Shown here in pieces: positions 10,378 through 51,347 of a stretch of DNA of 64,000 bases. A program made the position numbers and the translations under genes. Numbering within the stretch: the stretch's first letter is position 1; each line of letters opens with the position of its first letter. The stretch comes from Dehalococcoidia bacterium (GTDB taxonomy: Bacteria > Chloroflexota > Dehalococcoidia > Bin125): contig OZ244584.1 of assembly GCA_965218115.1 (NCBI GenBank), positions 1,646,576 through 1,710,575 of the forward strand, given 5' to 3'. Under the pieces are notes generated by a model, which was not told where the DNA came from, did no database searches, and saw nothing but the letters and a program-made list of their open reading frames with translations.

Positions 10378-10590
10378 CTCTCCCCCCGCGCTGCGGGGGG
10401 AGATGCCGAAGCCTGCCCCTGCGCAGGCAGGGGGCAGAGGGCGGCTGCGCCGCCGACTCACTGCCGTCGCTGTATCTGGTCGGACAGGATCGGGCCCCCC
10501 TCTGTCCCTACGGGACATCTCCCCCCGCTCTGCGGGGGGAGAGGAGATCCGGATTCCGCTGACCACTCAATGTGGTCAGCGGGGGGGGAG
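10378..10590. repeat. Cluster of GC-rich palindromic REP/MITE-like elements: family A core TCTCCCCCCGC..GCGGGGGGAGATGCCGAAG, plus the palindromes CCTGCCCCTGCGCAGGCAGGGGGCAGG and GCTGACCAC..GTGGTCAGC
   Basis: Inverted repeats were read directly. The same cores recur at ~30768, 31040, 37941, 47140-47580 and 50336. Confidence 0.7.
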
Positions 10591-10623
10591 AGCGGATCTG
10601 GCTTGTTCAGAGCTTTCCCAGGA

Positions 10624-11247
10624 TCACCGCTTGCCGCGCAGCAGGCCGCGCAGGCCGCTGCTGCGGAGCTGTTTGAGTTCGGCCTCTGCAGCGCTCGCGG
10701 ACTGCGTCGCCTTCTCGTGTTCGCGGCGCAGGCGGTTCATCTCGCGGCGCCGCTCGTCGAACGCGCTCTCGTGTTCCTCGACCACGCCGGCCGCGTGAGC
10801 CTCGGCGGCGGCGGCCCTCGCGGTGGCTTCTTCCGCCGTTGCTTCGGCGGCCGCCAGCCGCGTCTGCAGACCTGCAACCTGCTCTGCCAGCCGCGTCCGG
10901 TCGGCTTCGGCGGTGCTCAGCGATTCCTGCGCGGTGGCCAGCGCGGCCTCGGTCTGGGCCTTGCCTTCGGCGACGGCGGTCTGCACGGCCAGCTCCGATG
11001 TTGCACGCTCCAGCGCCGCGCTGAGCTCCGCGACCCGGGCGCGCAGCGGCTCGACATCCTGGCCGGCGGTCGCGAGCCGATCGGCCAGTTTCTCGGCGCG
11101 CGCCTGGGCTTCGGCCGCGCGCGCCGCGGCGGCGCGTTCGCGCCGGTCGTAGGCGTTGGCCCGTTCGACGGCCACGCGGCGGCCCTGTTCGGCGCGCTCG
11201 GCGACAAGCCCGGCATCTCGCAGTTGATCACGCAGACTGCGGCTCAC
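10624..11247 (-). CDS. Ala-rich coiled-coil protein (hypothetical)
   Basis: 207 aa with heptad-like A/E/L/R repeats, on the same strand as its neighbours. The overlapping plus-strand ORF is Gly/Arg-rich and looks like a GC artefact. Confidence 0.4.
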   Translation of the reverse strand: MSRSLRDQLRDAGLVAERAEQGRRVAVERANAYDRRERAAAARAAEAQARAEKLADRLATAGQDVEPLRARVAELSAALERATSELAVQTAVAEGKAQTEAALATAQESLSTAEADRTRLAEQVAGLQTRLAAAEATAEEATARAAAAEAHAAGVVEEHESAFDERRREMNRLRREHEKATQSASAAEAELKQLRSSGLRGLLRGKR

Positions 11248-11333
11248 GGCGCACTCCGTCGCTGTGTGGTGGCGTTCAGTGTTGGTCGGATTTGGTCAGC
11301 GTTGGTCGATGGTGGTCGTGGTGGCGGGGCGGC

Positions 11334-12548
11334 TCAGCCGCCCGCCTGGACCTGGGCGATCGCCTCATCCCAGCGGGCCTCAAGCTGCGAATCGCGCACG
11401 GTATCGACGACGTAGTCGCCATAGTCGGCGGTCGTCGCGCCGGTGTTGCGGCCCGTCATGACCAGTTTCTTTTCGTATTGCCCGCAGAGGTCCATCGCCT
11501 TTTCGAGGCGCTGACCGAGCTCGACGTAGCCGATGTGGCTGAGCAGCATCGCGCCGGCGCGCAGCATCGAGGAGGGGTCGGCGTAGATATCGCGGCCTTC
11601 GCGGACCATCCGCGGCGCGGAGCCGTGGATCGCCTCGAACATCGCGGTCCTGGTCCCGATGTTGGCCGCGCCGGCGGTGCCGACGCCGCCCTGGAACTCG
11701 GCTGCCTCGTCGGTCAGGATGTCGCCGTAGAGGTTGGGCAGCGCGAAGACCTGGAAGTTGGCGCGACGCTTGGGGTCGACCAGCTTCGCGGTCATGATGT
11801 CGATGTACCAGCCCTCCCACTCGATCTCTGGGTAGTCCTCGGCGACGCGGCGGGCCGCGTCGAGGAACGCGCCGTCGGTGGTCTTGATCACGTTGGCCTT
11901 GGTCACCACGGTGACGCTGGTCTTGCCGTTCTGGCGGGCGAACTCGAACGCCGCGCGGATGATCCGCTCGCTGCCCGGGTTGGAGAGGATCTTGAAGTCG
12001 ACGTTGAGGTCGCCGAGGCTGAGGCCCTCGCTGCCGACGGCGTAGAGGTCTTCGGTGTTCTCGCGGAAGAAGGTCCAGTCGATCCCCTCGGCGGGGACGC
12101 GCACGGGTCGCACGTTGGCGAACAGGTCGAGGACCTTGCGCATCGCGACGTTGGCGCTCTCGATGTTGGGCCAGCCGTCGCCCTGCTCGGGGGTCGTGGT
12201 CGGACCCTTGAAGGTCACATCGCACTCGTTGATTTCGGCGAGCACCTCTTCGGGGATGGCGGCGAGTTCTTCGGCGCGGCGCTCGATGGTGAGGCCGTCG
12301 ATGGTGCGGAAGATGACCCGGCCGGAGGCGACCGGTTCGGCCAGCAGCTCTTCGAGCACGCGCTGGGATTCACGGGCGATGGAGGGCCCGATGCCGTCGC
12401 CGCCGAGCACGCCGATGGTGATCGTGTCGAGCTTGGTGTAGTCGGTCGGCGGGCCCTCGGACTTGATTCCGTCGACTCGCGCCTGCTGAGCCTCGAGCAG
12501 CGCGCCGAAGTGTTGCTTGGCCTGCTCAATCGAGTTCAATTCGGGCAT
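11334..12548 (-). CDS. icd: NADP-dependent isocitrate dehydrogenase
   Basis: 404 aa. It has the KGPTTTP…RPVR, FRENTEDLY and NLYGDILTD motifs of the β-decarboxylating dehydrogenase family, closest in pattern to ICD. Confidence 0.85.
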   Translation of the reverse strand: MPELNSIEQAKQHFGALLEAQQARVDGIKSEGPPTDYTKLDTITIGVLGGDGIGPSIARESQRVLEELLAEPVASGRVIFRTIDGLTIERRAEELAAIPEEVLAEINECDVTFKGPTTTPEQGDGWPNIESANVAMRKVLDLFANVRPVRVPAEGIDWTFFRENTEDLYAVGSEGLSLGDLNVDFKILSNPGSERIIRAAFEFARQNGKTSVTVVTKANVIKTTDGAFLDAARRVAEDYPEIEWEGWYIDIMTAKLVDPKRRANFQVFALPNLYGDILTDEAAEFQGGVGTAGAANIGTRTAMFEAIHGSAPRMVREGRDIYADPSSMLRAGAMLLSHIGYVELGQRLEKAMDLCGQYEKKLVMTGRNTGATTADYGDYVVDTVRDSQLEARWDEAIAQVQAGG

Positions 12549-12791
12549 GTCGGCTCCTCCTCAGGGTGACGCGACGGGGTCGCGCAGTTGGTCGGTCAGT
12601 GTGGCCCGCAGCACAGGCCGCCCCCGATGATACCCGCCCCGCGCGACGGATATCCGTCAGCGGACGGCGTGGCCAGGCCGCGGGCCCGCGGGTCGTGACC
12701 CTATCGACCCTGGCGCAGTCAATCAGCAGCCGATGGGCACTGGACTTCAACAGGTCATGTCAGCGCTCGGCGTCCGCGGGATCCCCAACCG

Positions 12792-13364: not shown

Positions 13365-13701
13365 CGTATGTCCCTTCGACTCAGATATATGATTATGCCA
13401 CAGCTCTCAACGATGTTGGGTGGCTTTCCGTTTGGATGATGCGACGTGCATGTCTCACCAGGTGCTGAGTCACATGCGTGTGGTGAGACCCCACAGATAG
13501 GATCGGCGACGTTGGGCTGGACGCTGCCGCCGCGGATGCCGGTGGCATCTGGGATGGTGTGCTCTGCTCGCTTATTGACACACAGAGCGCTGCGGCCTAC
13601 TCGCCGATGTACCAATATGATTCGTCGAGCTAGTCTAGCGTCTTGTCCCGCCTCGCCAACCAGGGGACTGTGAAGCGTTCGAGGGCCGCGACCAGACCTA
13701 T

Positions 13702-15687: not shown

Positions 15688-16643
15688 GCGGCGGCGACTC
15701 CCTCGGATTCCCAGGCGCGGTCGCGATGACCGAAGTCGAAGCGTCCGGGGTGCAGGATTTTGGCGATGATGTCAAGCGTTTCGACGACCCGCGGGCCCGG
15801 CCGATTGACGTACTGATTGCCGTCGATCAGCGCGACGCGGCCCTCGCGCACCGCGCGCAGCGTTGTCCAGCGCGGATTGGCGCGCAGCAGCTGCGCATCG
15901 CGACGGGTCTGCGGGAGGCCGTAGCCGTACGGCGCGACGATGATGATGTCGGGGTCGGCCGTCTCGAGATCGTCGATGCTGAAGTGCAGCGACTCGCCGC
16001 GGGGAGACCCGATCACGGGTCGGCCAGCGGCCAGCTCGATCAGCTCCATGGTCCAATGCCCGGCGGTCATCAGTGGGTCGGCCCACTCGACAACGGCGAC
16101 GCTGGGCCCCGTTGCTGAGCCGGAGGCCTGCTCCGAGATCTCGGTGATGCGGCGCCGGTAGCCCTCGACGGCGGCGCGTCCCAGATCAGCGCGGTCGAGC
16201 GCACCGGCCGTGCGTTGGATGTCGTCCCAGATATCGCCGAGCGAATTCGGCGCCAGTGAGACGATCCGTGATTCGATGCCGGTCAGCGTGGCGACGGCGC
16301 GTTCGACGTCGCGCAGCGAGACGGCGCAGACTTCGCATTGAGTCTGCGTGACGATGTGCGTGGGACGCAGTTCGCGGAGCAGCACAGTGTCGATCGCGTA
16401 GACGCCGAGCGCATCGGCCTCGTTGGCGTCGCGCGCCGCCCGGGCGAGCTCGCGGACGCGACGATCGATCTCCGCGCTGTCGGGGGTCGCGGCAAATCGC
16501 GGCGTGGTGAGGGCGGGCAGCGACTCCACGCCGGCGGGGAAGTCGCACTCGTGCGAACGGCCGACGAGCTGGTCCTGGAAGCCGAGCGCGCAGACGATCT
16601 CGGTCGCGCTGGGGAGCAGTGAAAAGATGCGTGGCTCGGTCAT
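15684..16643 (-). CDS. ABC-type periplasmic binding protein (Peripla_BP_2; cobalamin/iron-siderophore class)
   Basis: The conserved start is MTEPRIFSLLPSATEIVCALG. The ORF track extends further upstream, but the conserved start is preferred. No obvious signal peptide was seen. Confidence 0.6.
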   Translation of the reverse strand: MTEPRIFSLLPSATEIVCALGFQDQLVGRSHECDFPAGVESLPALTTPRFAATPDSAEIDRRVRELARAARDANEADALGVYAIDTVLLRELRPTHIVTQTQCEVCAVSLRDVERAVATLTGIESRIVSLAPNSLGDIWDDIQRTAGALDRADLGRAAVEGYRRRITEISEQASGSATGPSVAVVEWADPLMTAGHWTMELIELAAGRPVIGSPRGESLHFSIDDLETADPDIIIVAPYGYGLPQTRRDAQLLRANPRWTTLRAVREGRVALIDGNQYVNRPGPRVVETLDIIAKILHPGRFDFGHRDRAWESEGVAAA

Positions 16644-18255: not shown

Positions 18256-19470
18256 ATGTCCACCCCCATGCTTCGTCGCTTGATTCTCAAGAGCTTTCGA
18301 AGTGTGCATGCGGCCGCGATCGATCTTGACAACCCGACGCTCCTAGTTGGGCAAAATGGCGCGGGCAAGAGCAACGTCGTCGACGCGCTTGCATTTCTGG
18401 CCGAGCTGATGTCGTCTCCGCTGTCCGCCGCATTCGACAGGCGGGGCGGAATTGCGGCAGTCCGGAATCGCCGCCTCGGACAAAGCCACCCACCGAACAT
18501 GGGATTCCGAGTGGACGTGTCGCAGCCGGACGTCAACACAAAGGAGGCTATGTACGCCTTCGACGTACGGGCACGAAAGAACTACGGCTTTGAAATAGTG
18601 AGAGAACAATGCGCCGTGGTCGACCTAGACGGGTTCACCACATGGTGGTTCGACCGGCGCCGTGATGGAGAGTTCAGCAGCAACGCAAGTTCGTTGAGCC
18701 CCGCATTGGAACCGGAAGCGCTAGCGCTTCCACTTATCGGCGGCGACTCGAGATTTAGACCCATCGTTCAGTTCCTCAGCGACATGCGAGTATACAGAAT
18801 AGAGCCGGTCGTGCTCAGGGAGATGCAGGAACCTGATAGCGGTTTGCGCCTCAACCCGGACGGTAGCAACACAGCGAGCGTGCTCAGAGAGATCGAACGG
18901 AACTCTCCTCACGGGCGTCAGCAGATACTAGCTTTGTTAGAACATATTGTCCCGAACACTGTCGATGTCAAGCCGAAAGCACACGGCAACAAGCTGGCAC
19001 TTGAGTTCGCTCAGCAATGGCCGGACGCACGGAGCATCAAATTCGAGGCCTTCAATATGTCCGACGGAACGCTTCGCGCACTCGGGCTACTGGCTGCGGT
19101 GTTCCAGCAGGCACGACCTTCCGTCTTGGTCATCGAGGAACCCGAAGCCACCATTCATCCCGGTGCGATCGAGGCCGTGCTGGATTTGTTAGAGCATGCG
19201 ACCAGAGATATGCAAGTTATCGCAACCACACATAGTCCAGACCTGCTCGATGCCAAGTGGATCGAAGATCGATTCCTCAAGATCGTCCGCTCGGAAAGGG
19301 GCGCCACAATGGTCTCCCCGGTTTCTCCAGAAGTCAGAAGCGCATTGCAACAGCACCTCATGGGAGCGGGGGAGCTTTTACGAGCGAATGCGCTGACCCC
19401 CATCAGCTCCAGCGATTTGTTCATCCGTGACCCCCGGCAGTTACGTCTTTTCGAGTCACTTTCGTCGTGA
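18256..19470 (+). CDS. ABC/AAA_21-type ATPase of the OLD/AriA-like family
   Basis: 404 aa with Walker A LLVGQNGAGKSN, the ABC signature NMSDGTLR, Walker B VLVIEEPEATIHP and the H-loop ATTHSP. An RBS (AAGGGAG) lies upstream. GC is visibly lower than in the flanks. Confidence 0.75.
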   Translation: MSTPMLRRLILKSFRSVHAAAIDLDNPTLLVGQNGAGKSNVVDALAFLAELMSSPLSAAFDRRGGIAAVRNRRLGQSHPPNMGFRVDVSQPDVNTKEAMYAFDVRARKNYGFEIVREQCAVVDLDGFTTWWFDRRRDGEFSSNASSLSPALEPEALALPLIGGDSRFRPIVQFLSDMRVYRIEPVVLREMQEPDSGLRLNPDGSNTASVLREIERNSPHGRQQILALLEHIVPNTVDVKPKAHGNKLALEFAQQWPDARSIKFEAFNMSDGTLRALGLLAAVFQQARPSVLVIEEPEATIHPGAIEAVLDLLEHATRDMQVIATTHSPDLLDAKWIEDRFLKIVRSERGATMVSPVSPEVRSALQQHLMGAGELLRANALTPISSSDLFIRDPRQLRLFESLSS

Positions 19471-20105
19471 AGATAGTCCCAGTAGTGGAGGGGGAGGGTG
19501 AAGTTAAGGCAGTGCCTATCTTATTGCGCCGGATGATTGCACTGGTAGAGGCGTTCGAATCGATACAGGTCGGCCGGCCTATCCGCAAACCGCGCAGCCA
19601 ACTAACTAAGCGCGAGGGAATGGTTGAGGTCTTGAAGCTTGCCCGCATTCAGGGGGCGGACTCGGTTTTGTGCCTCTTTGATAGCGATGGTGTATGCCCA
19701 GTCAATCTGGCAGCGTGTTTACTGAACTGGGCGAGGGAGGAAGCATCGGACTTGGACTGTCATGTGGTAGTTGCCCATCAAGAATACGAGGCGTGGTTTT
19801 TGGCATCTATTCCTTCGCTTCGAGCGCACCCTGCGATGAGAGACGATGCAGAGTGCCATCCGAATCCAGAAGCGCGTCAAGGCGCGAAAGAACAGCTACA
19901 TAGCCGCATGCAGACTGGCAGCAGTTATTCACCAACGGCTCACCAAGCGGCATTCACCGCCAGCTTTGACATGGCATCCGCATACGCACATTGTCGATCA
20001 TTTCGAAAATTGACTAGCGCATTCGGCCAGATTCTCAGTAGGGTCGATTCGAACGTTGCTCACTGGCCACCAAGAGAATGGTCGGACACGATCATCCCCG
20101 AGTAA
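19467..20105 (+). CDS. TOPRIM-like small protein (DUF4276-like), partner of the upstream ATPase
   Basis: 212 aa with a GTG start overlapping the ATPase stop (GTGA). The N-terminus KIVPVVEGEGE resembles the TOPRIM catalytic Glu strand, CLFDSDG resembles the DxD motif, and HQEYEAWFL resembles the conserved DUF4276 HEFEALLF region. Confidence 0.6.
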   Translation: MKIVPVVEGEGEVKAVPILLRRMIALVEAFESIQVGRPIRKPRSQLTKREGMVEVLKLARIQGADSVLCLFDSDGVCPVNLAACLLNWAREEASDLDCHVVVAHQEYEAWFLASIPSLRAHPAMRDDAECHPNPEARQGAKEQLHSRMQTGSSYSPTAHQAAFTASFDMASAYAHCRSFRKLTSAFGQILSRVDSNVAHWPPREWSDTIIPE

Positions 20106-24372: not shown

Positions 24373-25155
24373 CTAACACTGATTCAGGTGACAGAGGCGA
24401 ACGCGCTTTGCCGTGTCGGCTTCCGGCGGCGGCTTTCGGCTCATCAAGTCAACGTTGTCGGGTTTGTCGGCGCGCGATCCGATCAGGTCGGTGATCAGGC
24501 GCTTGGGCAGCAGACCAACGTCCTCGGCGAAGAGGCAGAACAGCACACGATTGAGGAAGTGCGCGACCGGTTCGGGTTCGTGTCCGCGTTGCTGCATGGA
24601 GCGGGCGAGTTCGGCGAACCGCGAGGCCGCCGCGTCCGTGACCTCATCGGGGGTCTGTCGCGGACGCAGCGCCTGCGGCTCGCTCATCACTGCGCGCAGG
24701 ATGCGCAGCGCTCCCGCGGTCTTGTCCCCGCCGGCAGCAAGGTCTTCGAGCGTCAGCGAGTGGATGGTGGGACGGGTGTTGGTGAAGTTGGTGTGGACCT
24801 CGATCCGGTCCATGTCGCTGACGACGAGCACGGGCGGATTCTCGAGGTCTTCGCGGTAGTCAAGCAGTTGCCGATAGGCGGCGGCGAGGTCGGCGTGGTC
24901 GCCCTTGTACTCCCAACCGAAGTGTCGGCGCTTCCAGACGTCAGCCCAACCCTGGTTCCCGGTGCTCAGTCGTTCGGCGCCAGCCTCGAAGGTGTACCGC
25001 TCACCGGTCGGGTCGGCCTCGTTTGGGGTCTGGACGCCGAGCATGCGGCAGAGGTCGATGAAGTGCTCCTGCGAGGAGGCACGCTCGCGACGGGCGTTGT
25101 CGCGCCACTTGGCGGCGAATTGGGCAGCGGAGAGTGATCCAGGCGAAGCCGCCAT
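24373..25155 (-). CDS. N-terminal fragment of an MmeI/PglX-family enzyme: PD-(D/E)xK nuclease domain plus helical spacer, with the methyltransferase core missing
   Basis: 260 aa with AAQFAAKW…FIDLCRMLGV…ADVWKRRHFGWEYKG (D…ExK), VLVVSDMDRIEVHTNFTNT and RVLFCLFAEDVGLLP. All are hallmarks of the MmeI-family N-terminus and helical domain. It ends with a stop where the methyltransferase domain should begin. Confidence 0.65.
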   Translation of the reverse strand: MAASPGSLSAAQFAAKWRDNARRERASSQEHFIDLCRMLGVQTPNEADPTGERYTFEAGAERLSTGNQGWADVWKRRHFGWEYKGDHADLAAAYRQLLDYREDLENPPVLVVSDMDRIEVHTNFTNTRPTIHSLTLEDLAAGGDKTAGALRILRAVMSEPQALRPRQTPDEVTDAAASRFAELARSMQQRGHEPEPVAHFLNRVLFCLFAEDVGLLPKRLITDLIGSRADKPDNVDLMSRKPPPEADTAKRVRLCHLNQC

Positions 25156-26114: not shown

Positions 26115-26201
26115 GGGGAATTCCTCTCGCCGCTGGAGCGGTGAATTTCAAGTCCACGTGTCTGAGGCAGGGTAGCAGCGCGGCGTGCGACGACCGTGCA
26201 A

Positions 26202-26453
26202 TCAGTCGGCAGCGTGCAGACCATCGCCCGACTTGGCCTCGGCTTCGCGGTCCGCGGTTTCGAGCGCTGCGCGCTTGATGAAACGAATCAGTGGTCCACG
26301 GGGGTGTCGGCCACGGAGGCGTTCGACCTCCTCGCGATTGAATTCAATCTCGATGCCCAGCACGCCGGGACCCTTCTTCGCAGGGTCGTAGGGAATCTCT
26401 TCCGCATCGGCGATCGGCGTGTCAATGTGCAGCTTGCTGTGTTGCTTGGTCAT
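26202..26453 (-). CDS. BrnA-like antitoxin
   Basis: 83 aa downstream of the BrnT-like gene with a 4-nt overlap. It has the conserved …IEIEFNREEVERLR…RFIKRAALE…REA…. Confidence 0.5.
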   Translation of the reverse strand: MTKQHSKLHIDTPIADAEEIPYDPAKKGPGVLGIEIEFNREEVERLRGRHPRGPLIRFIKRAALETADREAEAKSGDGLHAAD

Positions 26454-26788
26454 CGCCTGCGCATCCTTCCTCCAGGTTGATGGTATCGCGTTCGTTCCTC
26501 ATCGTCAGAAATCCAACCGGTCACCACATGGGACATCCGATCCTGGTCGGAAGGCTCCAGGACGAAGGTCAACAGGAGGCCGGTTCTGTCGGGCCCGATC
26601 ATTTTCACTCGCTCCGGCTGAAAGCGAACGTTTCCCAGCTCGTCTTCGCGTTGCCTCGCTGGTTGGGCAAAGTACTTCGCCGGTCCTTCCCAGACGTCAT
26701 CGGCGTCATCGAGCGACAGCCCGTGCGCCCAGAGTTCATCATCGCTCGCATGGTTTCCGGTCACACCGCCGTATGGGATCTCAGGCAT
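26450..26788 (-). CDS. BrnT-like (DUF497) toxin
   Basis: 112 aa with …DELWAHGLSLDDADDVW… and …MIGPDRTGLLLTFVLEP…SHVVTGWISDDEERTRY. It follows the BrnT pattern (HG[ILV]xFxxA…; R[VI]IS.R.A…E…Y) and has toxin-first gene order, as in brnTA. Confidence 0.55.
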   Translation of the reverse strand: MPEIPYGGVTGNHASDDELWAHGLSLDDADDVWEGPAKYFAQPARQREDELGNVRFQPERVKMIGPDRTGLLLTFVLEPSDQDRMSHVVTGWISDDEERTRYHQPGGRMRRR

Positions 26789-26863
26789 TTCGATTCAAAC
26801 TTGATGACACGACGAAGCCCAGCCTTGCGGCTGGGCCTCGTGTTGAGCGCCGTTGTTGGAGAA

Positions 26864-30095: not shown

Positions 30096-30680
30096 ATGCC
30101 GCTCAAGAACAGCAAGACCACCGGTGACTTTGAGGTCACCGGCGTCAACCACCTCGCGCTGGTCTGCAGCGATATGCAGCGCACAGTCGACTTCTACACC
30201 GAGGTCCTCGGCTTCCCACTGATCAAGACGATCGAGCTGCCCAATGACATGGGCCAGCATTTCTTCTTCGACATGGGCAACGGCGCGAGCCTCGCGTTCT
30301 TCTGGTTCCCCGGAGCACCGGCGCCGCACCCGGGCATTTCGTCGCCCGACCCGAACACCTTCTTCGATCCCAGCGCGGAGCTGACCACCGCGATCGCCTC
30401 GATGAACCACATCGCCTTCGACGTGCCGGCGGACAAGATCGAGGCCTATCGGGACAAGCTGCTCGACCACGGTGTGCGCTGCACGCCGATCATGAACCAC
30501 GACGACTCGCCGCGCGGGATCAGCCGCGGGGTGAACGACACCACGTTCGTGCGGAGCGTCTACTTCTACGACCCGGACGGGATCATGCTCGAGTTCGCGG
30601 CCTGGACGCGCGAACTCCACGAGGGCGACGTAAGCCACGCCCCGGCCCGCGCCCTGGAGGCCGCCCTCTCCGGCGACTGA
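30096..30680 (+). CDS. VOC-family protein (glyoxalase/bleomycin-resistance/dioxygenase fold)
   Basis: 194 aa with VNHLALVCSDMQRTVDFYTEVLGF and paired βαβββ modules. Confidence 0.75.
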   Translation: MPLKNSKTTGDFEVTGVNHLALVCSDMQRTVDFYTEVLGFPLIKTIELPNDMGQHFFFDMGNGASLAFFWFPGAPAPHPGISSPDPNTFFDPSAELTTAIASMNHIAFDVPADKIEAYRDKLLDHGVRCTPIMNHDDSPRGISRGVNDTTFVRSVYFYDPDGIMLEFAAWTRELHEGDVSHAPARALEAALSGD

Positions 30681-30767
30681 GCGGGCGCGGCGCCGCCGGA
30701 CACGGAGCGGGCAGCCACTCGGTCGACGAGCAGCTGAGGCGGGCGGCAACTAATGAAGCTTCGAATA

Positions 30768-31300
30768 ACTCTCCCCCCGCTCTGCGGGGGGGAGATGTCA
30801 CGGAGTGACAGAGGGGGGCTCCCCCGCTCACCAACGGATCGCCCCCCTCTGCCTTCGGCATCTCCCCCCGCTTCGCGGGGGGAGAGGGGATCCAACGTGT
30901 TCACGGGATGCCTAATGCCTAACGGTCGCTTTGGGGTTGAACGGCATGAACGGAACCTGAACGAATCCGAACGCGGCTGAACGGCGACGATCCTGTCCCT
31001 GAGGCTGATCCTCGTATCTGGTAGCGATCCTCCGGGTCCTCTCTCCTCCCGCAGAGCGGGGGGAGATGCCACACGCAGAGGGGGGCTCGCGGCGCCCCCT
31101 CCGTCATTCCTGGGCCCCTCCGTCATTCCTGCGCAGGCAGGAATCCAGGCGATCTGTGGGGGGCAAGGGCTCTCCCAATGTTCGACGGCGCCCGCTTACG
31201 CGCGGTGAGCTGGGGCCTCTGATGGGCCGTCGGGCGGATGGAGGCTCGTCGCATGGTTAGGCGGTCGCATGGATTCCTGCCTCCGCAGGAATGACGGGGG
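30768..31300. repeat. Cluster of REP/MITE-like palindromic elements: family A copies, including a ~120-nt composite nearly identical to 37941-38040, and family B palindromes CATTCCTGCGCAGGCAGGAATC and GGATTCCTGCCTCCGCAGGAATG
   Basis: The inverted repeats and their recurrences were read directly from the sequence. Confidence 0.7.
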
Positions 31301-31524
31301 GGCAACAGCGCTGACTGGGTTGATCTGCAACACAGTTGCTCTGTCCCTCCGGGACCCCAGCGAAATTGGCCAACTGCTTACGCGCACGTAGCAGTCGCCA
31401 CACACGCGGCGTAGAGCCTGACTCACACGCGGGAACAAATCGGCGCCCGCGAGCGTACGGTAACTGTGCTCGAATAGCCCCTGATCCCGAGACGAACAGG
31501 GGCATGCGGCACGAAGGGAGGCGA

Positions 31525-35881: not shown

Positions 35882-36676
35882 GTCAGGAACGGCAGGCACC
35901 TATCGCGTCGCTTTATTCGCGATCGCTGTCGCTCCCGAGTTGAGGTCGGAGAACGAAATGGTGGAGATCATCATCGGTACAGTCGTCGGGGGAGTCATTC
36001 TTACTGCGTTAGGATGGGCCGTCCCGCGCCTTCCTAGGATTTACGCACGTCACATCCGCCCCTCGTATGGGCCACACTTCTTGATCGCGACAACTAGTCC
36101 GTGGGACGATCCTGACCCTCCGCCATATCCTGACAACTGGAGTGCTCGACTGATCGAAGCGATCAAATCGGGTTGGGCCAACATCTCGGTCTGCCTGAGG
36201 CTACGGAGAATGTAGCTGTGATGCGTGGAGACTCCACGAGCTGACGCTTGTGGACCGTGTTGCGACGATGACCACCGACGGCGATCAGCAGACACCGACA
36301 GCCACGTGTCGGCGGGCAGTGGTTCAGAGCAGCGAGCCACAGGGAAAGCGGCGAAACTGTATCGCCCCTAAAGGAACACAGCCCAGACCGACCACCACAG
36401 CCCGGACTCCGACCTACGCCTCGGTTCGCGGTCGGTCAGCTCAAGCGCGGCCCCCATGACAAAGCGCGTGATCCCCTCCGGGCAGCAGGGGTACCTGCCG
36501 GCAGTCGATCGATTCCCCCGGTGCTGAGTTGGACCTCAATGACGATCGAACCGGTCCCCGTCTACGAACGGTCGTAGGCGATCACTTCGGCCTCCTCAAT
36601 CGGCGAATTCACGACGTGTGCCGAATCTTCGCGCTCGCTCATCTGCCGAGCACCGTCCCACCGCGGCTACGGCGGC

Positions 36677-36931
36677 TCAGGCGGACTCGCGCAGCCGCTG
36701 CTCGGCCTTGCGCTTGGCCTCGCGGTCGGCCAACTCCAGGGCGGCGCGCTTGATGAAACGGGCATACCTGCCGCGAGTGACAGCCTCCCTGAGCCGGTCG
36801 ATCTCCTCAGAACTGAACTCAACCTCAATCACGAACGAGCCGGGCCCCATCTGTGATGGATCGTATGCAACCTCTTCCGCCTCCCCGATCGGCGGGTCAA
36901 CAATGTGGACAGGCTCCAAGCGTTCGCTCAT
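36677..36931 (-). CDS. BrnA-like antitoxin
   Basis: 84 aa, …IEVEFSSEEIDRLREAVTRGRYARFIKRAALELADREAKRKAEQRLRESA, with a 4-nt overlap with the upstream toxin. Confidence 0.5.
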   Translation of the reverse strand: MSERLEPVHIVDPPIGEAEEVAYDPSQMGPGSFVIEVEFSSEEIDRLREAVTRGRYARFIKRAALELADREAKRKAEQRLRESA

Positions 36932-37263
36932 CTGATCCGCATCCTTCCTCCAGGCCGATCGTAGCGCGTTCGTTCCTCATCGTCCGACTCCCATCCGGTC
37001 CCCACATGTGAGCGGCCGTTGGAGTTCGGAAGTTCGATTACGAACGTCAACAGCCGGCCGCCACGATCCGGACCGATCATCAGCAACCGGCTCGGTTGCC
37101 TAGACACCTGACCGGATGCGTTGATTCGATCGCGCGCGGGCTGCCTGAAGTATTTGGCCGAGCCTCGCCACACGTCGCGGGCATGGGCGAACTCGAATCG
37201 GTGATTCCACAGCTCTTCATCGGTAGCGTCGTTGCCCGCGATCCCTCGCTCCGGGATGTCCAT
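36928..37263 (-). CDS. BrnT-like (DUF497) toxin
   Basis: 111 aa, a close paralog of 26450-26788 (…MIGPDRGGRLLTFVIELP…SHVGTGWESDDEERTRY). Confidence 0.55.
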   Translation of the reverse strand: MDIPERGIAGNDATDEELWNHRFEFAHARDVWRGSAKYFRQPARDRINASGQVSRQPSRLLMIGPDRGGRLLTFVIELPNSNGRSHVGTGWESDDEERTRYDRPGGRMRIR

Positions 37264-37330
37264 GCACTCAGTGTATGGCTGAAACTGGCGAAGTCCCGCC
37301 GGGAAGAGCGTCGGGCTCGAGGGTCACGGC

Positions 37331-37555
37331 TCAGGCGGACTCGCGCATCCGTTCCGCTGCCTTGCGCTTGGCCTCGCGCTCGGCCAACTCCAGGGCGGCG
37401 CGCTTGATGAAGCGGGTGATCCCCTCGGGACCGCGCGTATAGCCGGCGCGGAGACGCTTCACTTCCTCGGCATCGAACTCGACTTCGATCATCCAGTGGC
37501 CCGGCTCTCTGTTCGCGACCTCAATGCTGGGCGGTGGGCTGGCTGCTGAGTTCAC
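37331..37555 (-). CDS. Orphan BrnA-like antitoxin paralog
   Basis: 74 aa, …WMIEVEFDAEEVKRLRAGYTRGPEGITRFIKRAALELAEREAKRKAAERMRESA. There is no adjacent toxin gene. Confidence 0.45.
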   Translation of the reverse strand: MNSAASPPPSIEVANREPGHWMIEVEFDAEEVKRLRAGYTRGPEGITRFIKRAALELAEREAKRKAAERMRESA

Positions 37556-37797
37556 GCGGATTCGCGCAACGCTTCGTCCTGCTTCTCGGCCTCGGCGGCT
37601 GCCCGCCGATCCGCTTCGGCAAGGGCAGCCTGCCTGATAAATCCGGTGATTCGCGTACCGCGTTCCACGCCGCGTTTCAGTCGTTGCACGTCCTCAGGCG
37701 AAAACTCCACCTGAATGATCATCCGACCGGGCCGCTGGCGCTCGCAGACCAGCTCCACAGTGTTCGGTGTCATTGGTTCGTCTTCGTGCCTGCTCAT
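37552..37797 (-). CDS. Orphan BrnA-like antitoxin paralog
   Basis: Conserved core …MIIQVEFSPEDVQRLKRGVERGTRITGFIRQAALAEADRRAAAEAEK… Start taken at MSRHEDEP (37797). The ORF track extends to 37860. Confidence 0.45.
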   Translation of the reverse strand: MSRHEDEPMTPNTVELVCERQRPGRMIIQVEFSPEDVQRLKRGVERGTRITGFIRQAALAEADRRAAAEAEKQDEALRESA

Positions 37798-37940
37798 CGG
37801 CGACGCGTCCTTCCACCGGGGCGAGCGTAGCGCGTTCGCTCGTCTTCGCCGGACTCCCATCCAGTGACGAGATGCGACACGCCGTCCGCTCCAGGGAGTT
37901 CAAGAACGAAGCTAAGAATCCTCTGAACAAGTCGGACACC

Positions 37941-38040
37941 ATCTCCCTCTGCTCTGCGGGGGGAGATGTCACGGAGTGACAGAGGGGACCGCGGCCCCCC
38001 TCTGCCTTCGGCATCTCCCCCCGCTTTGCGGGGGGAGAGT
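37941..38040. repeat. ~100-nt composite REP/MITE-like element, a near-copy of 30768-30895
   Basis: CTCTGCTCTGCGGGGGGAGATGTCACGGAGTGACAGAGGGG…CCCCCCTCTGCCTTCGGCATCTCCCCCCGCTTTGCGGGGGGAGAG, made of nested inverted repeats. Confidence 0.7.
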
Positions 38041-38073
38041 TATTCACAGCTTTCCTAAGCAGTCGCGAGGCGT

Positions 38074-46208: not shown

Positions 46209-46210
46209 GG

Positions 46211-46930: not shown

Positions 46931-47139
46931 TCCAACCGTCGCAGTGATTTGAGCCTATCAGCGGACGCGCCCGGAACCCGGCGCGCTTCTGTCACCACCG
47001 CTACTCGCGCTACTCGCGCCAGCCGCCTGAGTCGCGCCAGGAACGCTCTGAATGCCGGCGGGTGACGGGGGTTTGGGCAGCGCCCCGGCGGCAGTGCGGT
47101 GGAGCGCGCTCAGGCGGTCAATGCAGGAGGGCTCAGCGA

Positions 47140-47580
47140 GCGCTGACTCGGAAATGGCTCCCCCCCGAGGGGGAGCTGCGCGTAAGTCCCACTGCTCCGA
47201 CCTTCCCTGTCGGTGGCGGTGTCACGAAGTGAAGGTGGGGAGCTTCCGCTATCTGGTGAGGGGGCACCCGGAGCCCCCCTCTGCCTGCGGCATCTCCCCC
47301 CGCGGAGCGGGGGGAGAGGGGAAATGGAGATTACGCGCAGGTCTCCCGAGGGGGAGCTGCCGAAGGCAGAGGGGGAGGCCTTGCGGCGGACCACGCTGGC
47401 GGGGTTGGGAACCTCCCCCTCAGTCGCTGCGCAACAGCTCCCCCGCGGGGGGAGCAGTTGGATCGGACTGCTCGCGCGCTCCCTTAGGCGGTCGCTGCCT
47501 CGATCATCGGCGGCAGCAGCCCCCCTCTGCCTTCGGCATCTCCCCCCGCTTCGCGGGGGGAGATGGGATCCGACTTGATC
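47140..47580. repeat. Dense cluster (~440 bp) of family A REP/MITE-like elements (GGAGCCCCCCTCTGCCTGCGGCATCTCCCCCCGCGGAGCGGGGGGAGAGG etc.)
   Basis: At least five copies or partial copies were read directly. The Gly/Arg-rich ORF 47052-47759 is an artefact of these repeats. Confidence 0.7.
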
Positions 47581-47589
47581 AGAGGATTC

Positions 47590-47796
47590 CTAGCGGCGGC
47601 GGGGGTCGGGGGCGTTCTGCATCTCGGGCGGGAGCAGGTTGGGGATGCCGTCCTCGATCGGGTAGCGGAAGTCGAGCGAGCGTGAGTAGAGGTGGCCGCG
47701 GATCACCTCGCCGTCGGCGGCCTCCTGCTCGACGACGAGCTCGAGCGGCTCGTGGGTGACGGGGCAGACGAGGATCTCGACGAGTTCCTTGCGCAT
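47590..47796 (-). CDS. Trm112-family small protein (DUF343)
   Basis: 68 aa, LVEILVCPVTHEPL…. Confidence 0.7.
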   Translation of the reverse strand: MRKELVEILVCPVTHEPLELVVEQEAADGEVIRGHLYSRSLDFRYPIEDGIPNLLPPEMQNAPDPRRR

Positions 47797-47919
47797 TGCG
47801 GCAGCCTACCCTTCGCCCGCGAGCGCCACGCGCAGCGCATGCGGCGCGAGCAGCTAACCTCTGTCCGCGCCATACTGTACGCGCGAGACGAAGCATCGAG
47901 GAATCGAGGGGTGTGACCT

Positions 47920-48138: not shown

Positions 48139-48147
48139 CAGGCCGCC

Positions 48148-49491
48148 ATGTTCAAGCGAGTCTTGATCGCCAATCGCGGCGAGATCGCGGCGCGCGTCTC
48201 GCGCACCTGCCGTCGGCTGGGGATCGAATCGCACGCCATCTACTCGGTGGCCGATGCCGACGCGCTGCACGTGCGTGAGGCGGATGGCGCGACGCACATC
48301 GGCGCGTCGCCGGTGGCCGAGTCCTACATCAACGTTGAGGCGGTGATCGAGGCGGCGGTGCATGCCGGCTGCGACGCGGTGCATCCCGGCTACGGGCTGC
48401 TCTCGGAGAACGCGCACTTTGCTCAGGCCTGCGAGGATCGCGGGATCACCTTTATCGGCCCAGCCGCCGAGCACATGGACCTGATGGGCAACAAAGACCA
48501 GGCGCGGCGCACGATGCGCGACCTGGGCCTGACGGTGATCCCCGGCAGCGAGGGGGCGGTTTCGGACGAAGAGGCTCTCGCGGCCGCTGAGGCGGTGGGC
48601 TACCCGCTGCTGATCAAGGCCTCGTTCGGCGGCGGTGGGATTGGGATGGCCAGCGTCAAGCGGGAGCGGCAGTTTGAGCGATCGCTGCGAAGGGCGCGAT
48701 CGTCCGCGTCGCGGGCGTTCGGCTCGGGCGATGTCTATCTGGAGCGCGAACTGGTCGAGCCGCATCACATCGAGCTGCAGGTGTTCGGCGACGGTCGCGG
48801 CGGCGCACTGATTCTGGGCGACCGCGAGTGCTCGGTGCAGCGGCGGCATCAGAAGGTGATCGAAGAAGCCCCGGCCCCGGCACCGGGCTTTACCGATGCG
48901 CTGCGAGAGCGGCTCTACGCGCAGGTGCAGGCGGCGGTTTCGCAGCTCGGCTACCGCAACGCGGGGACGATCGAGTGCCTGCTTGACGGGTCGGGCGAGA
49001 TGTTCTTCCTCGAGATGAACACGCGGCTGCAGGTGGAGCATCCAGTCACGGAGATGGTCACGGGGCAGGACCTCGTTGAGTGGCAGCTGCGGATCGCGTC
49101 GGGCGAGCCGCTCGCGGAGCTGCCCGTGCCGGACAGGATCAACGGGCACGCGATCGAGACGCGCATCTACGCCGAGGATCCGGTGACGCTGCTGCCCTCG
49201 CCGGGCTCGATCGACGTGCTCGAAGTGCCCGACGAACCATGGCTGCGGCTGGATACGGGCGTCGCGAGCGGCGACGACGTGCCGCATTACTACGACCCGC
49301 TGATGGCGAAGCTGATCGTGCACGGGGACTCGCGCGCGGAGGCGCTGGAGCGGCTCGAGAGCGCGCTGGCCGGCACGCGGATCGAGGGGATCAAGCACAA
49401 TGTGCCCTTCCTCCAGCGTGTGATCGAGACGCCGGAGTTTCAGCAGGGCGACTACACGGTGGCGCTGACCGACGGCTTGCTGAAGGGATGA
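48148..49491 (+). CDS. accC: Biotin carboxylase (acetyl/acyl-CoA carboxylase subunit)
   Basis: 447 aa with an ATP-grasp fold, N-terminus MFKRVLIANRGEIA…. Confidence 0.9.
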   Translation: MFKRVLIANRGEIAARVSRTCRRLGIESHAIYSVADADALHVREADGATHIGASPVAESYINVEAVIEAAVHAGCDAVHPGYGLLSENAHFAQACEDRGITFIGPAAEHMDLMGNKDQARRTMRDLGLTVIPGSEGAVSDEEALAAAEAVGYPLLIKASFGGGGIGMASVKRERQFERSLRRARSSASRAFGSGDVYLERELVEPHHIELQVFGDGRGGALILGDRECSVQRRHQKVIEEAPAPAPGFTDALRERLYAQVQAAVSQLGYRNAGTIECLLDGSGEMFFLEMNTRLQVEHPVTEMVTGQDLVEWQLRIASGEPLAELPVPDRINGHAIETRIYAEDPVTLLPSPGSIDVLEVPDEPWLRLDTGVASGDDVPHYYDPLMAKLIVHGDSRAEALERLESALAGTRIEGIKHNVPFLQRVIETPEFQQGDYTVALTDGLLKG

Positions 49492-49495
49492 GCGG

Positions 49496-50329
49496 ATGAA
49501 GTTCGGCATCTTCGGCCTGGGCTCGGGCGTCGCGGACCCGCAGACGATCACGACGGTCGCGCAGGCCGCTGAAGCGGCCGGCCTGGAGTCACTGTGGACG
49601 GGCGAGCATGTGGTCCTGCCCAAGCCGCGCGTCGCGCCGTCGCCGGCCGACCCCGACCTGCCGTTCCTGCATCCGTCCTCGGTGCTCAGCTATCTGGCGG
49701 CGGTCACCGAGACGGTGATGCTCGGGACCGGCGTCGTGCTGATCGCGCAGCGCAACCCGGTCGTGCTGGCGAAGGAGATCGCGAGCGCGGACGTGCTGAG
49801 CGGCGGACGGGCGATCCTCGGCGTCGGCGCGGGGTATCTGGAGCCGGAGTTCGAAGCGATCGGGGCCGACTTCCACACGCGCGGTGCGCGCACCGACGAG
49901 GCGATCGACGTGCTGCGGGCGCTCTGGAATCAGGAAGACCCGAGCTTCGACGGCGAGTTCAACGAGTTTTCAGGGATCGACGCGCATCCGCGACCGATAC
50001 AGGCCGGCGGCGTGCCGATCGTGATCGGCGGCCACAGCCGCGCCGCGCTGAGGCGCGCAGTGGAGCGGGGCCACGGATGGTACGGGTGGGCGCAGACGCC
50101 GGAGCAGACGCGCGATCTGCTCGCGAAGGTTGAGGAGATCTCGTCGACCGTCGAACGACCGGTGGAACTCGGCGAACTGGAGATCACGATCACGCCGCCG
50201 GCGCGGCTGACCGCGGAAGCGGTCGAGGACTACGCCGAGGCCGGCGTGCACCGGTTGGTCTCGCTGATGTCGCGGCAGGAGCCGGGGATGCTGCGCACGA
50301 TCGAGCTGCTGCACGAGCTCAGCGACTGA
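49496..50329 (+). CDS. LLM-class F420-dependent oxidoreductase
   Basis: 277 aa, …LESLWTGEHVVLP…GVGAGYLEPEF…. Confidence 0.75.
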   Translation: MKFGIFGLGSGVADPQTITTVAQAAEAAGLESLWTGEHVVLPKPRVAPSPADPDLPFLHPSSVLSYLAAVTETVMLGTGVVLIAQRNPVVLAKEIASADVLSGGRAILGVGAGYLEPEFEAIGADFHTRGARTDEAIDVLRALWNQEDPSFDGEFNEFSGIDAHPRPIQAGGVPIVIGGHSRAALRRAVERGHGWYGWAQTPEQTRDLLAKVEEISSTVERPVELGELEITITPPARLTAEAVEDYAEAGVHRLVSLMSRQEPGMLRTIELLHELSD

Positions 50330-51347
50330 GCTGTTCCCAGCTCCCCCCTGCGGGGGGAGCTGCCGAAGGCTGAGGGGGGAGCTCGCGCCCTTCCTCCAAT
50401 CGCCGCAGACACTCTCGCCCAACGCGCTGGACATCGGCCCACGAGTACCAGGGCGGAATGTCGCCGATTTCGGACCAGATGCGGTGGATGACGGCGAGCT
50501 TGTAGAGCTGGTGCAGCATCCAGTAGCGCAGGTCGGCTGGGAGGCGACCGCTGGCGAACAGTGAGGGCCGCGCGAGCGGCATCTGCTCGGGCGCTTCGGG
50601 CGAGCCGCGCAGGGCGGCAAGGGCGCAGATCAGGCCCCAGTCGGAGAGCGGGTCGCCGAGATTGGCCTGCTCCCAATCGACCACCCCGACGATCGCGCCG
50701 TCGTCGCCGACGAGATAGTTGAAGACGTTGATATCGCCGTGGCAGAGCCGTGGCGGCGGGCTGTCGGGCACCGCACCGCGGGCGACCTCGGCGAGTTGGG
50801 TGATGTACGGGTCGGCGTCGCAGGCAAACGAGATGGCGCGGGCGTGCACGGCGTCGAGGTCGCGCTCGGCGGCGTGCGGGCCGGGCGTGGGCGGATCGAG
50901 AAAGTCGAGGCCCGCGGCCCGCCAGTCGACCGCGTGGATCGCGTCGACGGCGGCCCGGTAGGCGTCGAACAGGCCCGGGCTGATCCCGACCTGGCCCATG
51001 TGCGGGGCATCGATCCACTCCATCACGATGCAGGCCGCGTCGAGCGCGGCCGAGTGGGCGGCGCCGCCGAGCATCGCCGGGACGGGCACGGCCGTGTCGG
51101 CGAGCGCGCTCAGGACGCGGCCTTCGCGGAGCACGTCGTAGGGCTGGAAGATGCCGCGCTCGCGTTCGACGCGCAGCACGACCGGATCGCGATCTTCGAG
51201 CGCGAGGCGCCAGGTGAGATTGGAGACGCCGCCATCGAGCCGGTGCAAGGAGGTGACGTGCGCCTTGATGCCGCAGTCTTCAAGCGCGACCGTCGCAAGC
51301 GCAGTGGTGAGCGCCGCAGTGATCGGCGCATTGATTGTCGGAGGCAC
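50319..51347 (-). CDS. Phosphotransferase-enzyme-family protein (APH/ChoK-like kinase)
   Basis: 342 aa with Brenner motif HGDINVFNYL and DWEQAN. Confidence 0.75.
   Translation of the reverse strand: MPPTINAPITAALTTALATVALEDCGIKAHVTSLHRLDGGVSNLTWRLALEDRDPVVLRVERERGIFQPYDVLREGRVLSALADTAVPVPAMLGGAAHSAALDAACIVMEWIDAPHMGQVGISPGLFDAYRAAVDAIHAVDWRAAGLDFLDPPTPGPHAAERDLDAVHARAISFACDADPYITQLAEVARGAVPDSPPPRLCHGDINVFNYLVGDDGAIVGVVDWEQANLGDPLSDWGLICALAALRGSPEAPEQMPLARPSLFASGRLPADLRYWMLHQLYKLAVIHRIWSEIGDIPPWYSWADVQRVGRECLRRLEEGRELPPQPSAAPPAGGSWEQLSR
50336..50395. repeat. Single family A REP-like element
   Basis: CTCCCCCCTGCGGGGGGAGCTGCCGAAGGCTGAGGGGGGAGCTCGC. Confidence 0.6.

Follow-up and report, generated by a model that had tools for sequence, protein, structure and literature searches.

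Intergenic palindromic repeats of a Dehalococcoidia genome: a probable mosaic of known repeat kinds with IS5-type outer ends

Several described systems resemble the GC-rich palindromic elements that populate the intergenic DNA of a 64,000-nucleotide stretch of a Dehalococcoidia bacterium (Chloroflexota; contig OZ244584.1, positions 1,646,576 to 1,710,575 of the forward strand), hereafter the window. Rickettsia palindromic elements (RPE) are small mobile repeats of palindromic sequence, which may be located in frame within genes. The Correia elements of Neisseria can be co-transcribed at the ends of genes and fold into long hairpins, and they duplicate TA, not 4 bp. Among the repetitive extragenic palindromes (REPs), the CGTC-1 type has a terminal CGTC, an 8-bp stem starting with an A-T and a T-A pair, a 4-nt loop and a CCA tail, and forms head-to-head dimers. 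CGTC repeats have been reported in five phyla, Chloroflexi not among them, and the CGTC-1 dimers of H. neapolitanus lie inside palindromes of the form GGGaaGCTT-GAAAaACC...GGTaTTTCgAAGC-gCCC (PMC3733652). The E. coli motif TM_ECO, CCCTCNCCC N3-6 GGGNGAGGG N3 GGGNGAGGG, adopts a triplex structure in vitro and is a marker of variable loci (Holder et al. 2015, PMC4666352). The target duplication of the insertion sequence (IS) IS5 is 5'-YTAR-3' (PMC5009759).

With a probability of about 0.7, the elements of the window form a mosaic in which small non-coding palindromic repeats of three kinds are combined, all of known types and common to a high-GC Dehalococcoidia clade: a hairpin unit of about 47-51 nt, a CGTC-1-type REP dimer, and composites with terminal inverted repeats (TIR) that would be IS5-type miniature inverted-repeat transposable elements (MITEs). 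Four composites of the window are bounded by 16-nt TIRs (consensus GGAAAGCTCTGAACAA(G) and TTGTTCAGAGCTTTCC; Table 1). This TIR is found in 37 copies in the clade loci and the window, 31 of which have a hairpin at a distance of 2 or 12 nt. Of the four window elements, three have exact 4-bp direct repeats at their sides: CTAA/CTAA twice, and CCAG/CCAG, which is not a YTAR, at 10363-10617. The flanks of the fourth element (47042-47589) are unequal, CCAG/CTAG; at the same site, the related locus L111 has CTAG/CTAG, flanks that are also found in L064. The flanks were counted with a TIR pattern, which the 30754-30911 element escaped, its repeats being read directly from the sequence. Among the elements caught by the pattern, exact 4-bp repeats are present at 4 of 15 clade elements and at 12 of 33 metagenome TIR pairs. 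Among the latter are TTAG/TTAG and CTAA/CTAA, non-palindromic repeats that speak for a target duplication and not for a longer inverted repeat.

The same ends bound a longer element of about 1.2 kb in two metagenome contigs. In locus L192 (1.17 kb), its end reads GGAAAACTCTGAACAAG, identical to the composite TIR at 16 of 17 positions, and the flanks are CTAG and TTAG. The 328-aa open reading frame (ORF) of this element matches the NCBIfam model transpos_IS5_4 with 355 bits (cut-off 140), as well as Pfam DDE_Tnp_1 and DUF772, and has 47% identity with E. coli InsH; the annotated ends of the E. coli IS5 are GGAAGGTGCGAA(T/C)AAG. The metagenome scan with the TIR pattern also gave about 20 contigs with elements of 99-289 bp that have the same ends and quite different interiors; most of the single matches are probably chance 16-mers, and only these inverted-pair contigs and the two IS copies were used. 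All TIR-bounded elements (69-551 bp) are too short for a transposase: their interiors consist of palindromic modules and have no coding capacity. By the features of their sequence, the TIR-bounded composites qualify as IS5-family MITEs. A relationship to IS630/Tc1-type elements with a 2-bp TA duplication was dropped in view of the IS5-family element with the same ends and of the non-palindromic 4-bp repeats (CTAA, TTAG, CCAG). YTAR sites are rare in a genome of 68% GC and are often stop codons, which fits elements that abut gene ends.

Shells with these ends enclose other palindromes in the metagenomes. Three 112-bp elements (L193, L198, L231) contain the palindrome GTGGGAGCGAGCTTGCTCGCGA, which we take to be typical of Pseudomonas repeats, and several recovered MITEs carry CGTC-type REP dimers inside the shell (L157, L201, L210, L214). 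The shell seems to pick up whichever local REP family is present.

The inner unit has sharp edges. When five window regions were compared by BLAST with 105 related loci, a segment of about 47 nt gave some 150-190 high-scoring pairs per unit, larger composites being 5-20 times rarer. Within its length of about 47-51 nt, an 11-bp C6/G6 hairpin, TCTCCCCCCGC-NNN-GCGGGGGGAGA, is followed by a mini-hairpin with a GNA loop and by AGAGGGGGG. The oriented unit reads (C)CTCTCCCCCCGC-nnn-GCGGGGGGAGA-TG(stem)-G-N-A-(stem')CA-GAGGGGGG(C), with its ends at ..TTCCCCT/CTCCCCCC and GGGGGG/CTCCCC. Seen as domains, it consists of TCTCCCCCC-GCnnnGC-GGGGGGAGA, then the mini-hairpin TG-stem-GNA-stem-CA, then AGAGGGGGG. 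The mini-hairpin exists in several versions (TGCC-GAA-GGCA, 56 copies; TGTCAC-GGA-GTGACA, 18; TGCC-GCA-GGCA, 17; TGTCCC-GTA-GGGACA, 11; TGTCGC-GGA-GCGACA, 1), which all keep the pairing, and its loop G-N-A occurs with all four N. In an alignment of 40 units, 98.9% of the cells pair. Three pairs of the mini-hairpin are changed on both sides (27 cells), a covariation that is matched by none of 500 shuffles and by no slid register.

The 3-nt loop of the main hairpin is often reverse-complemented between orthologous copies (AAA vs. TTT; L078:4655 and L086:3844), and complementary loop pairs are common among the units (AGA/TCT, GGA/TCC, GAA/TTC), as if the perfect palindrome were flipping in place.

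Units are found single or as inverted doublets in which the mini-hairpin and G-run sides point inward: this geometry is clear in 13 doublets and probable in 9, vs. 2 and 2 for other arrangements. The two hairpins are 49-96 nt apart, and the central stem is formed by GAGGGGGGC with GCCCCCCTC. A single unit already has a stem of -17 kcal/mol as DNA. Folding, proposed as a check in the first-pass annotation of the window, gave one long hairpin each time with z about -5 to -8: as single-stranded DNA, z = -7.21 for the doublet at 30.8 kb and -4.93 for the one at 37.9 kb, and as RNA, z = -7.95 for the composite at 10.4 kb.

The first-pass annotation, made from the sequence alone, had described the nested palindromes of the intergenic DNA as a REP/MITE-like family with three recurring cores, and this description is borne out. 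The core GCATCTCCCCCCGC (at most two mismatches) has 13 matches for 1.96 expected, a number reached by none of 100 dinucleotide-preserving shuffles; CCGAAGGCAGAGGGGGG and TGTCACGGAGTGACA (at most three mismatches) have seven matches each, for 0.46 and 1.37 expected, again reached by no shuffle. In a hairpin scan of the window, the common denominator of the cores turned out to be the 11-bp-stem palindrome TCTCCCCCCGC-NNN-GCGGGGGGAGA. Perfect copies start at 10379, 10518, 30861, 38014, 47293 and 47537; one G is added in the copy at 30770, and the copies at 31043 and 37942 are degenerate. Variant hairpins (type B), with stems AGCTCCCCC(C)...GGGGGGAGCT, start at 47157, 47343, 47437 and 50338. A covariance model of the 51-column unit, a check likewise proposed in the annotation, was run on the window without filters and recovered nine full units (47-78 bits), besides two to four variants, two of them clear (50338-50380 and 47413-47457). 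In the 64-kb window, it gave no convincing unit beyond 10.36-10.62, 30.75-31.34, 37.91-38.06, 47.04-47.59 and 50.34-50.38 kb. Two composites reported as nearly identical, 30768-30893 and 37940-38039, indeed share 94 identical positions over the 100 nt of the shorter copy, and differ mainly by indels in the spacer.

Every copy in the window lies in a gap between ORFs of high third-position GC (GC3), hence in intergenic DNA, according to the map of third-position GC and the Pfam domains of the neighbours. The five gaps separate, in order, a hypothetical gene from metH, a glyoxalase gene from rpoD, small-gene cassettes from pyrK, a pyrR-like from a Trm112-like gene, and a luciferase-like from an APH gene. 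As the copies sit between high-GC3 genes, the long ORFs that cross them on both strands, for example 30566-31126(-), 47052-47759(+) and 37694-38047(-), are spurious, as had been supposed.

Table 1. Repeat elements placed in the window, and in-frame units of related loci.
Element	Position	Strand	Components	Flanks
TIR-bounded composite, 255 bp	10363..10617		unit(+) 10377-10435 with expanded mini-hairpin; unit(-) 10494-10544; extra hairpin 10556-10582	CCAG direct repeat 10359-10362 and 10618-10621
TIR-bounded inverted doublet, 158 bp	30754..30911		unit(+) 30768-30819; unit(-) 30841-30887	CTAA 30750-30753 and 30912-30915
Solitary unit, slightly degenerate	31040..31086	+	TCTCCTCCCGC-AGA-GCGGGGGGAGA, TGCCACACGCA, GAGGGGGGC; covariance model 56.4 bits	
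Segment X (second family)	31100..31339		head-to-head CGTC-1-type REP dimer: 31121-31147(+), 31270-31296(-)	
TIR-bounded inverted doublet, 139 bp	37916..38054		unit(+) 37940-37990; unit(-) 37994-38040	CTAA 37912-37915 and 38055-38058
TIR-bounded mosaic, 548 bp	47042..47589		units(-) 47273-47319, 47519-47565; type-B doublet 47343-47377(+)/47413-47457(-); type-B hairpin 47157-47176	CCAG 47038-47041; CTAG 47590-47593
Family 3 composite, ~185-197 nt	47158..47354		nested in the 47042..47589 mosaic; one unit; type-B hairpins at ends	
Solitary type-B unit	50338..50380	+	CAGCTCCCCCC-TGC-GGGGGGAGCTG, CCGAAGGC, TGAGGGGGG; between convergent genes	
In-frame CoA-transferase units	L104:825-3290; L071:515-3094; L038:4557-7178; L098:1-1371		would encode stretches such as SPPAKRGEMPKAEGG	

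A second family beside the first had also been announced, and its inverted repeat (31114-31152 / 31265-31303, 92% complementary) is genuine. The left arm reads CGTC-ATTCCTGC-GCAG-GCAGGAAT-CCA, with an 8-bp stem, a 4-nt loop and a CCA tail; its inverted partner completes a head-to-head dimer with the CGTC ends outward. With every defining feature present in its sequence, this family is classified as a CGTC-1 REP dimer. The repeat nature of the elements had thus been recognized from the start; what the annotation left out are the IS5-type ends with their 4-bp duplications, the CGTC-REP identity, the covariation of the GNA mini-hairpin and a triplex-type mirror, which is discussed below.

The family is not specific to this genome, contrary to what the annotation had assumed. 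A scan of species-representative genomes with the hairpin pattern gave at least 105 loci; gene contexts and unit counts rest on the loci listed. The hairpin is present in at least 19 Dehalococcoidia/Chloroflexota species genomes, most of these hairpins carrying the full unit, and the outer repeats occur in unrelated metagenome contigs with other interiors. Eight further assemblies are found among the matches listed: Phenylobacterium, Dyella, Anaeromyxobacter, proteobacterial metagenome-assembled genomes (MAGs) and one Thermoanaerobaculia MAG. The hairpins outside the Chloroflexota continue with GGGT(A/T)GGGTGAGGGGGG and constitute a different family. In the viral contigs, no match to the unit was found. 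OZ253504.1 (L076) is syntenic with the window at 94% identity, and four ENA contigs are 95-96% identical to it; judging from their names, several relatives are presumably bins of sponge metagenomes.

Two observations concern these loci. In the proteobacterial and Anaeromyxobacter loci L010, L014, L023, L030, L018, L020, L036, L072, L090, L093 and L096, an identical 25-nt C6/G6 hairpin is joined to GGGT(A/T)GGGTGAGGGGGG; the four G-runs of this family also match the canonical G-quadruplex pattern, and its three-domain mirror layout is close to the TM_ECO pattern. The 8 kb of L102 (OZ253504.1:480001-488000) contain at least 12 hairpin units, and credible ORFs are few (3.0-4.5 and 6.8-7.6 kb); this block looks like a large repeat cluster or graveyard.

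The position of the hairpins with respect to genes is the classical REP pattern. Two called neighbours are available for 125 of the 176 hairpins in Chloroflexota loci: 79 lie in co-directional, 40 in convergent and only 6 in divergent gaps, compared with 263/78/68 for the background of intergenic regions. Solitary units show a weak bias in their orientation with respect to transcription (25 against 12).

The elements vary among close relatives. Three sites of the window, A, B and C, are polymorphic among genomes that are 94-96% identical in the flanking genes (window, L076, L107, L110, L111, L112). The doublet between the glyoxalase gene and rpoD (site A) is present in the window, L076 and L111, and absent from L107, L110, L112, L108 and L109. 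Site B, between the Trm112-like and pyrR-like genes, has several alleles with the same ends and position: the 548-bp mosaic in the window, the canonical 158-bp doublet in L107 and L111, a 347-bp type-B allele in L112, and no element in L109. The element downstream of pyrK (site C, 37916..38054) is found in the window only, being absent from L107, L110, L111, L112, L108 and L109. Modules are also rearranged: in L076, segment X is inserted in inverted orientation inside the 30.8-kb doublet, exactly between GAG and GGGGGG, and in the window it lies 230 nt downstream. In the window mosaic of site B, both alleles are joined with the family 3 element, which is 89-93% identical to copies at at least four unrelated loci of OZ253504.1; the L112 allele lacks window positions 47180-47364. 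The comparison with L087, about 75% identical, shows clean differences in both directions: accC is separated from the following gene by a unit in L087 and by 4 nt in the window; conversely, the place of the 50338 unit is empty in L087 and the genes abut. Other polymorphisms are a singlet vs. a doublet, the gain of a tandem hairpin, the loss of a mini-hairpin and a nested insertion.

At site B, the right-hand CTAG of the mosaic includes the TAG stop codon of the Trm112-like gene (47590-47592, minus strand). A shortening of this gene by 13 codons through the element agrees with the frame but is doubtful, since the tails of the proteins fail to align. An insertion into a CTAG that already held the original stop fits the L111 locus.

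These data suggest the following scheme. In the doublets, the inner G-run and C-run would pair to give one long hairpin or cruciform, like a REP doublet forming a hairpin (REPIN) or a bacterial interspersed mosaic element (BIME). Singles, doublets and mosaics enclosed by TIRs would be non-autonomous MITEs, flanked by 4-bp YTAR-type duplications. As we infer from their ends, an IS5-family DDE transposase would insert them in trans, preferring the rare CTAG/CTAA sites, mostly stop codons at 68% GC. CGTC-1 REP dimers and other modules would be interleaved with the units. Recombination between the shared hairpins would exchange, duplicate and delete modules, which would make the host intergenic regions hypervariable. 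Roles at the level of the host, as a hairpin at the 3' end of transcripts, a donor of ribosome-binding sites or a protein linker, would be incidental.

Several facts weigh against a mosaic dispersed by an IS5-type enzyme. Several TIR-bounded copies have imperfect flanks, which in two cases read CTAA...TTAG, a pattern as compatible with a 2-bp TA duplication as with decay. Neither the L192 transposase nor InsH has a match at E <= 1 (phmmer) among 11170 ORFs of the window and the clade loci, about 1 Mb; in the same amount of clade DNA, the search for multi-copy ORFs near the units, as a sign of an IS, gave old paralogues only. The empty sites at A and C are not base-perfect, as the adjacent ~10-45 nt also differ between filled and empty alleles. 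About 80% of the hairpin units lie outside a recognisable TIR shell and have no target duplication; the shell therefore accounts for only part of the dispersal. Many units occupy orthologous positions in species that are only 85-93% identical, and in 16 orthologous unit pairs the purine and mirror domains are 100% identical, the pyrimidine domain 94%, loop 1 71% and the flanks 58-66%. This conservation points to selection or gene conversion and not to a simple selfish turnover: the units would be either constrained or homogenised.

Four other explanations have to be weighed. The high GC of the window (58-73%) and the G/C homopolymers in which the cores are rich could suggest unrelated low-complexity runs that look alike by chance in a genome of 68% GC, a doubt already raised in the first-pass annotation. 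However, the dinucleotide-preserving shuffles never attain the observed counts, an alignment of 40 units has 85% identity per column and stems without variation, the covariance model gives scores up to 78 bits, and a 47-nt unit is repeated in at least 19 species genomes; chance can be discarded with near certainty. A function as hairpins of the RNA, at the 3' ends of genes or between cistrons, where they would terminate transcription, block 3'-exonucleases or regulate translation, as proposed for the E. coli REPs, would agree with the location of the units: 119 of the 125 classifiable hairpins follow one gene or two, in co-directional or convergent gaps, intercistronic spacers are filled by units, the stems are very stable and the positions are conserved across species. 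In the accC/luciferase-like spacer of L087 (1600-1665, corresponding to window 49486-49500), the terminal GAGGGGGG of a unit even lies 6 nt before the ATG, at the place of a Shine-Dalgarno sequence. On the other hand, the stems continue with TGCC.. or GGGGA.. and no T-run follows them; none of the nine terminator-like sites found by a scan of 30.5-50.45 kb is an element, so that the terminator role put forward at first has no direct support. Furthermore, the orientation bias is weak, close relatives do without elements at the same sites, and some units lie in frame inside genes for tandem-fused CoA-transferases, where they fall into the linker that joins the two CoA_transf_3 domains (several paralogues and orthologues; Table 1). 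Searches with Rfam found only four tRNAs in the window and, at E <= 1, look-alikes of microRNA precursors with 13-27 bits for cut-offs of 60-140. Such an RNA function as the reason for the repeats is thus unlikely.

The doublets could instead be copied by a single-copy tyrosine transposase of the HUH-Y1 type (REP-associated tyrosine transposase, RAYT) that recognises single-stranded DNA hairpins, the units being true REPs and the IS5-type shell secondary. Doublets prevail, in the inverted geometry and with the long-hairpin fold to be expected, the family persists across species with a constant sequence, the mini-hairpin keeps its G-N-A triloop through compensatory changes of the stem, solitary units have no target duplication, and gaps between divergent genes are depleted as for REPs. 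Hairpins with a G-N-A triloop are very stable in DNA. Against this stands the end of the unit, where GTAG or an equivalent tetranucleotide tag is missing (definition in PMC3733652); within the units, GTAG appears only inside one mini-hairpin variant. The enzyme is not in evidence either: E. coli RayT gave nothing at E <= 10 (phmmer) among 8176 ORFs of the clade loci and the window, and a scan for the HUH...YxxNP motif was empty, both searches covering about 1 Mb and being weak for distant RAYTs; the homologues retrieved for RayT were all enterobacterial proteins at least 65% identical and gave no basis for a broader profile; moreover, ten ORFs flanked by hairpins have no Y1_Tnp domain in Pfam. 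Copying by a RAYT is rather improbable. Finally, the unit may be kept as a DNA structure, a class II purine-motif intrastrand triplex like BoxC/PIT/TM_ECO, in which the mirror arm folds back through the mini-hairpin linker; it would stall replication and make the site recombinogenic, explaining the mosaicism and the hypervariability. The order pyrimidine (TCTCCCCCC) - loop - purine (GGGGGGAGA) - loop - mirror purine, with 9-nt domains, is that of TM_ECO, and AGAGGGGGG is an exact 9-nt mirror of GGGGGGAGA in 113 of the 125 oriented units. The mirror is retained in the type-B variant (G6AG ... GAG6) and in the unrelated proteobacterial family with the same hairpin, solitary units retain the third domain despite having no pairing partner nearby, and the sites that bear units are strikingly polymorphic among relatives of ~95% identity. 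However, in the doublets this domain is more simply one arm of the central Watson-Crick stem, the mirror is of low complexity (G6 plus AGA), loop 2 (10-14 nt) exceeds the 1-6-nt range of the TM_ECO study (PMC4666352), and gene conversion or recent copying could equally account for the conservation. A triplex is therefore a possible but tentative explanation. Doubtful to a slightly greater degree is its extension, in which a selected class II triplex with a self-folding GNA mini-hairpin loop would have been kept for long in the Dehalococcoidia clade as a programmed fragile or recombinogenic site, exchanging modules, IS5-type shells and small cassettes, and could be domesticated as a protein linker or as a donor of stop codons or ribosome-binding sites.

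The mosaic of REP-like units, CGTC-1 dimers and IS5-type MITEs thus remains the preferred reading, and an IS5-family gene bounded by GGAAAGCTCTGAACAAG ends in a clade genome would support the mobilisation in trans. Masking of the elements would improve gene calling in this poorly studied uncultured clade, where they produce long spurious Gly/Arg/Pro-rich ORFs and are found at stop codons, within intercistronic spacers and, in frame, in linkers between domains. Their presence or absence among ~95%-identical genomes is a strain marker and also flags local hotspots of rearrangement. The elements connect three repeat literatures, on IS5-type MITE shells, CGTC REPs and BoxC-type triplex motifs, and extend CGTC-type REPs and repeats with a triplex layout to the Chloroflexota. 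The 47-nt oligonucleotide is a test case for whether a linker that contains a hairpin still permits an intrastrand triplex.

The surroundings of the elements correspond in part to what had been annotated as the borders of accessory patches. One element abuts an array of small-gene cassettes, and the regions upstream of rpoD and pyrR are hypervariable; three low-GC islands with defence-like genes, however, have no element. The pyr operon, thought to be truncated at an element, ends at pyrK in all relatives, with or without it. The cassette ORFs have no Pfam match, which leaves the label toxin-antitoxin putative.

The cassettes themselves comprise three tandem paralogues in 36300-37910 and a fourth copy 10 kb away in 26198-26790 (repeat families D1 and D3). 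In the ~95% relatives, their number is one in L107 and two in L110 and L112; L111 has a different pair and L109 none. The low-GC (58-60%) islands at 18256-20105, 24373-25155 and 57766-59640, none bordered by a unit, carry an AAA_21/AAA_15 ATPase with DUF4276, a 260-aa MmeI-type fragment (N-terminal and helicase-spacer domains only), and a second AAA_21 ATPase beside tRNA-Gln and tRNA-Leu. Upstream of rpoD (30930-30990) are short GAAC-rich repeats, TGAACGG...GAACGAATCCGAAC, and L109 has three tandem copies of about 100 nt of CCCGAACAAAGCTGTACAAACCCGAACAA at the same place (15700-16000); this may be a regulatory or a repeat-prone promoter region.

Compared with IS5-family MITEs, the composites have a TIR, GGAAAGCTCTGAACAA(G), that is identical to E. 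coli IS5 GGAAGGTGCGAACAAG at 13 of 16 positions, as well as YTAR-type 4-bp repeats, a size of 69-551 bp and insertion polymorphism between close relatives. They differ by their interior, made of C6/G6 units or other palindromic modules and not derived from an IS, by one copy with the non-YTAR CCAG, and by the fact that no cognate transposase was found in ~1 Mb of clade DNA. Like the REPs, BIMEs and REPINs of E. coli and Pseudomonas (Bertels & Rainey 2011, PMC3116915; PMC3733652), the units are short extragenic palindromes that occur as singles, inverted dimers and interleaved clusters, are enriched in co-directional and convergent gaps, sometimes supply stop codons with their termini and are occasionally intragenic; unlike them, the C6/G6 unit has no GTAG tag and no detected RAYT, and is longer (47-51 nt), with two hairpins and a G-run. 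The RPEs are likewise found in frame inside genes, with unrelated sequences and hosts; the Correia elements are also unrelated in sequence and host, and duplicate TA where 4 bp are duplicated here.

With BoxC/PIT/TM_ECO (Hoyne et al. 2000; PMC4666352), the unit shares a G/C-rich intergenic architecture of three domains of 9 nt, inverted tandem pairs, variable loci and the lack of a known dedicated transposase. The domains are TCTCCCCCC/GGGGGGAGA and not CCCTCNCCC/GGGNGAGGG, and loop 2 is a GNA mini-hairpin of 10-14 nt instead of 3 nt; those motifs belong to Proteobacteria and this one to Chloroflexota, the likeness being one of sequence layout. The closest correspondence is that of segment X, which shares every listed feature of the CGTC-1 REPs, such as the dRS3 of Neisseria (Di Nocera et al. 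2013, PMC3733652), while the palindromes around the CGTC-1 dimers of H. neapolitanus resemble the TIR shell of the window. The elements are unsurprising in kind: they are an ordinary bacterial mosaic repeat.

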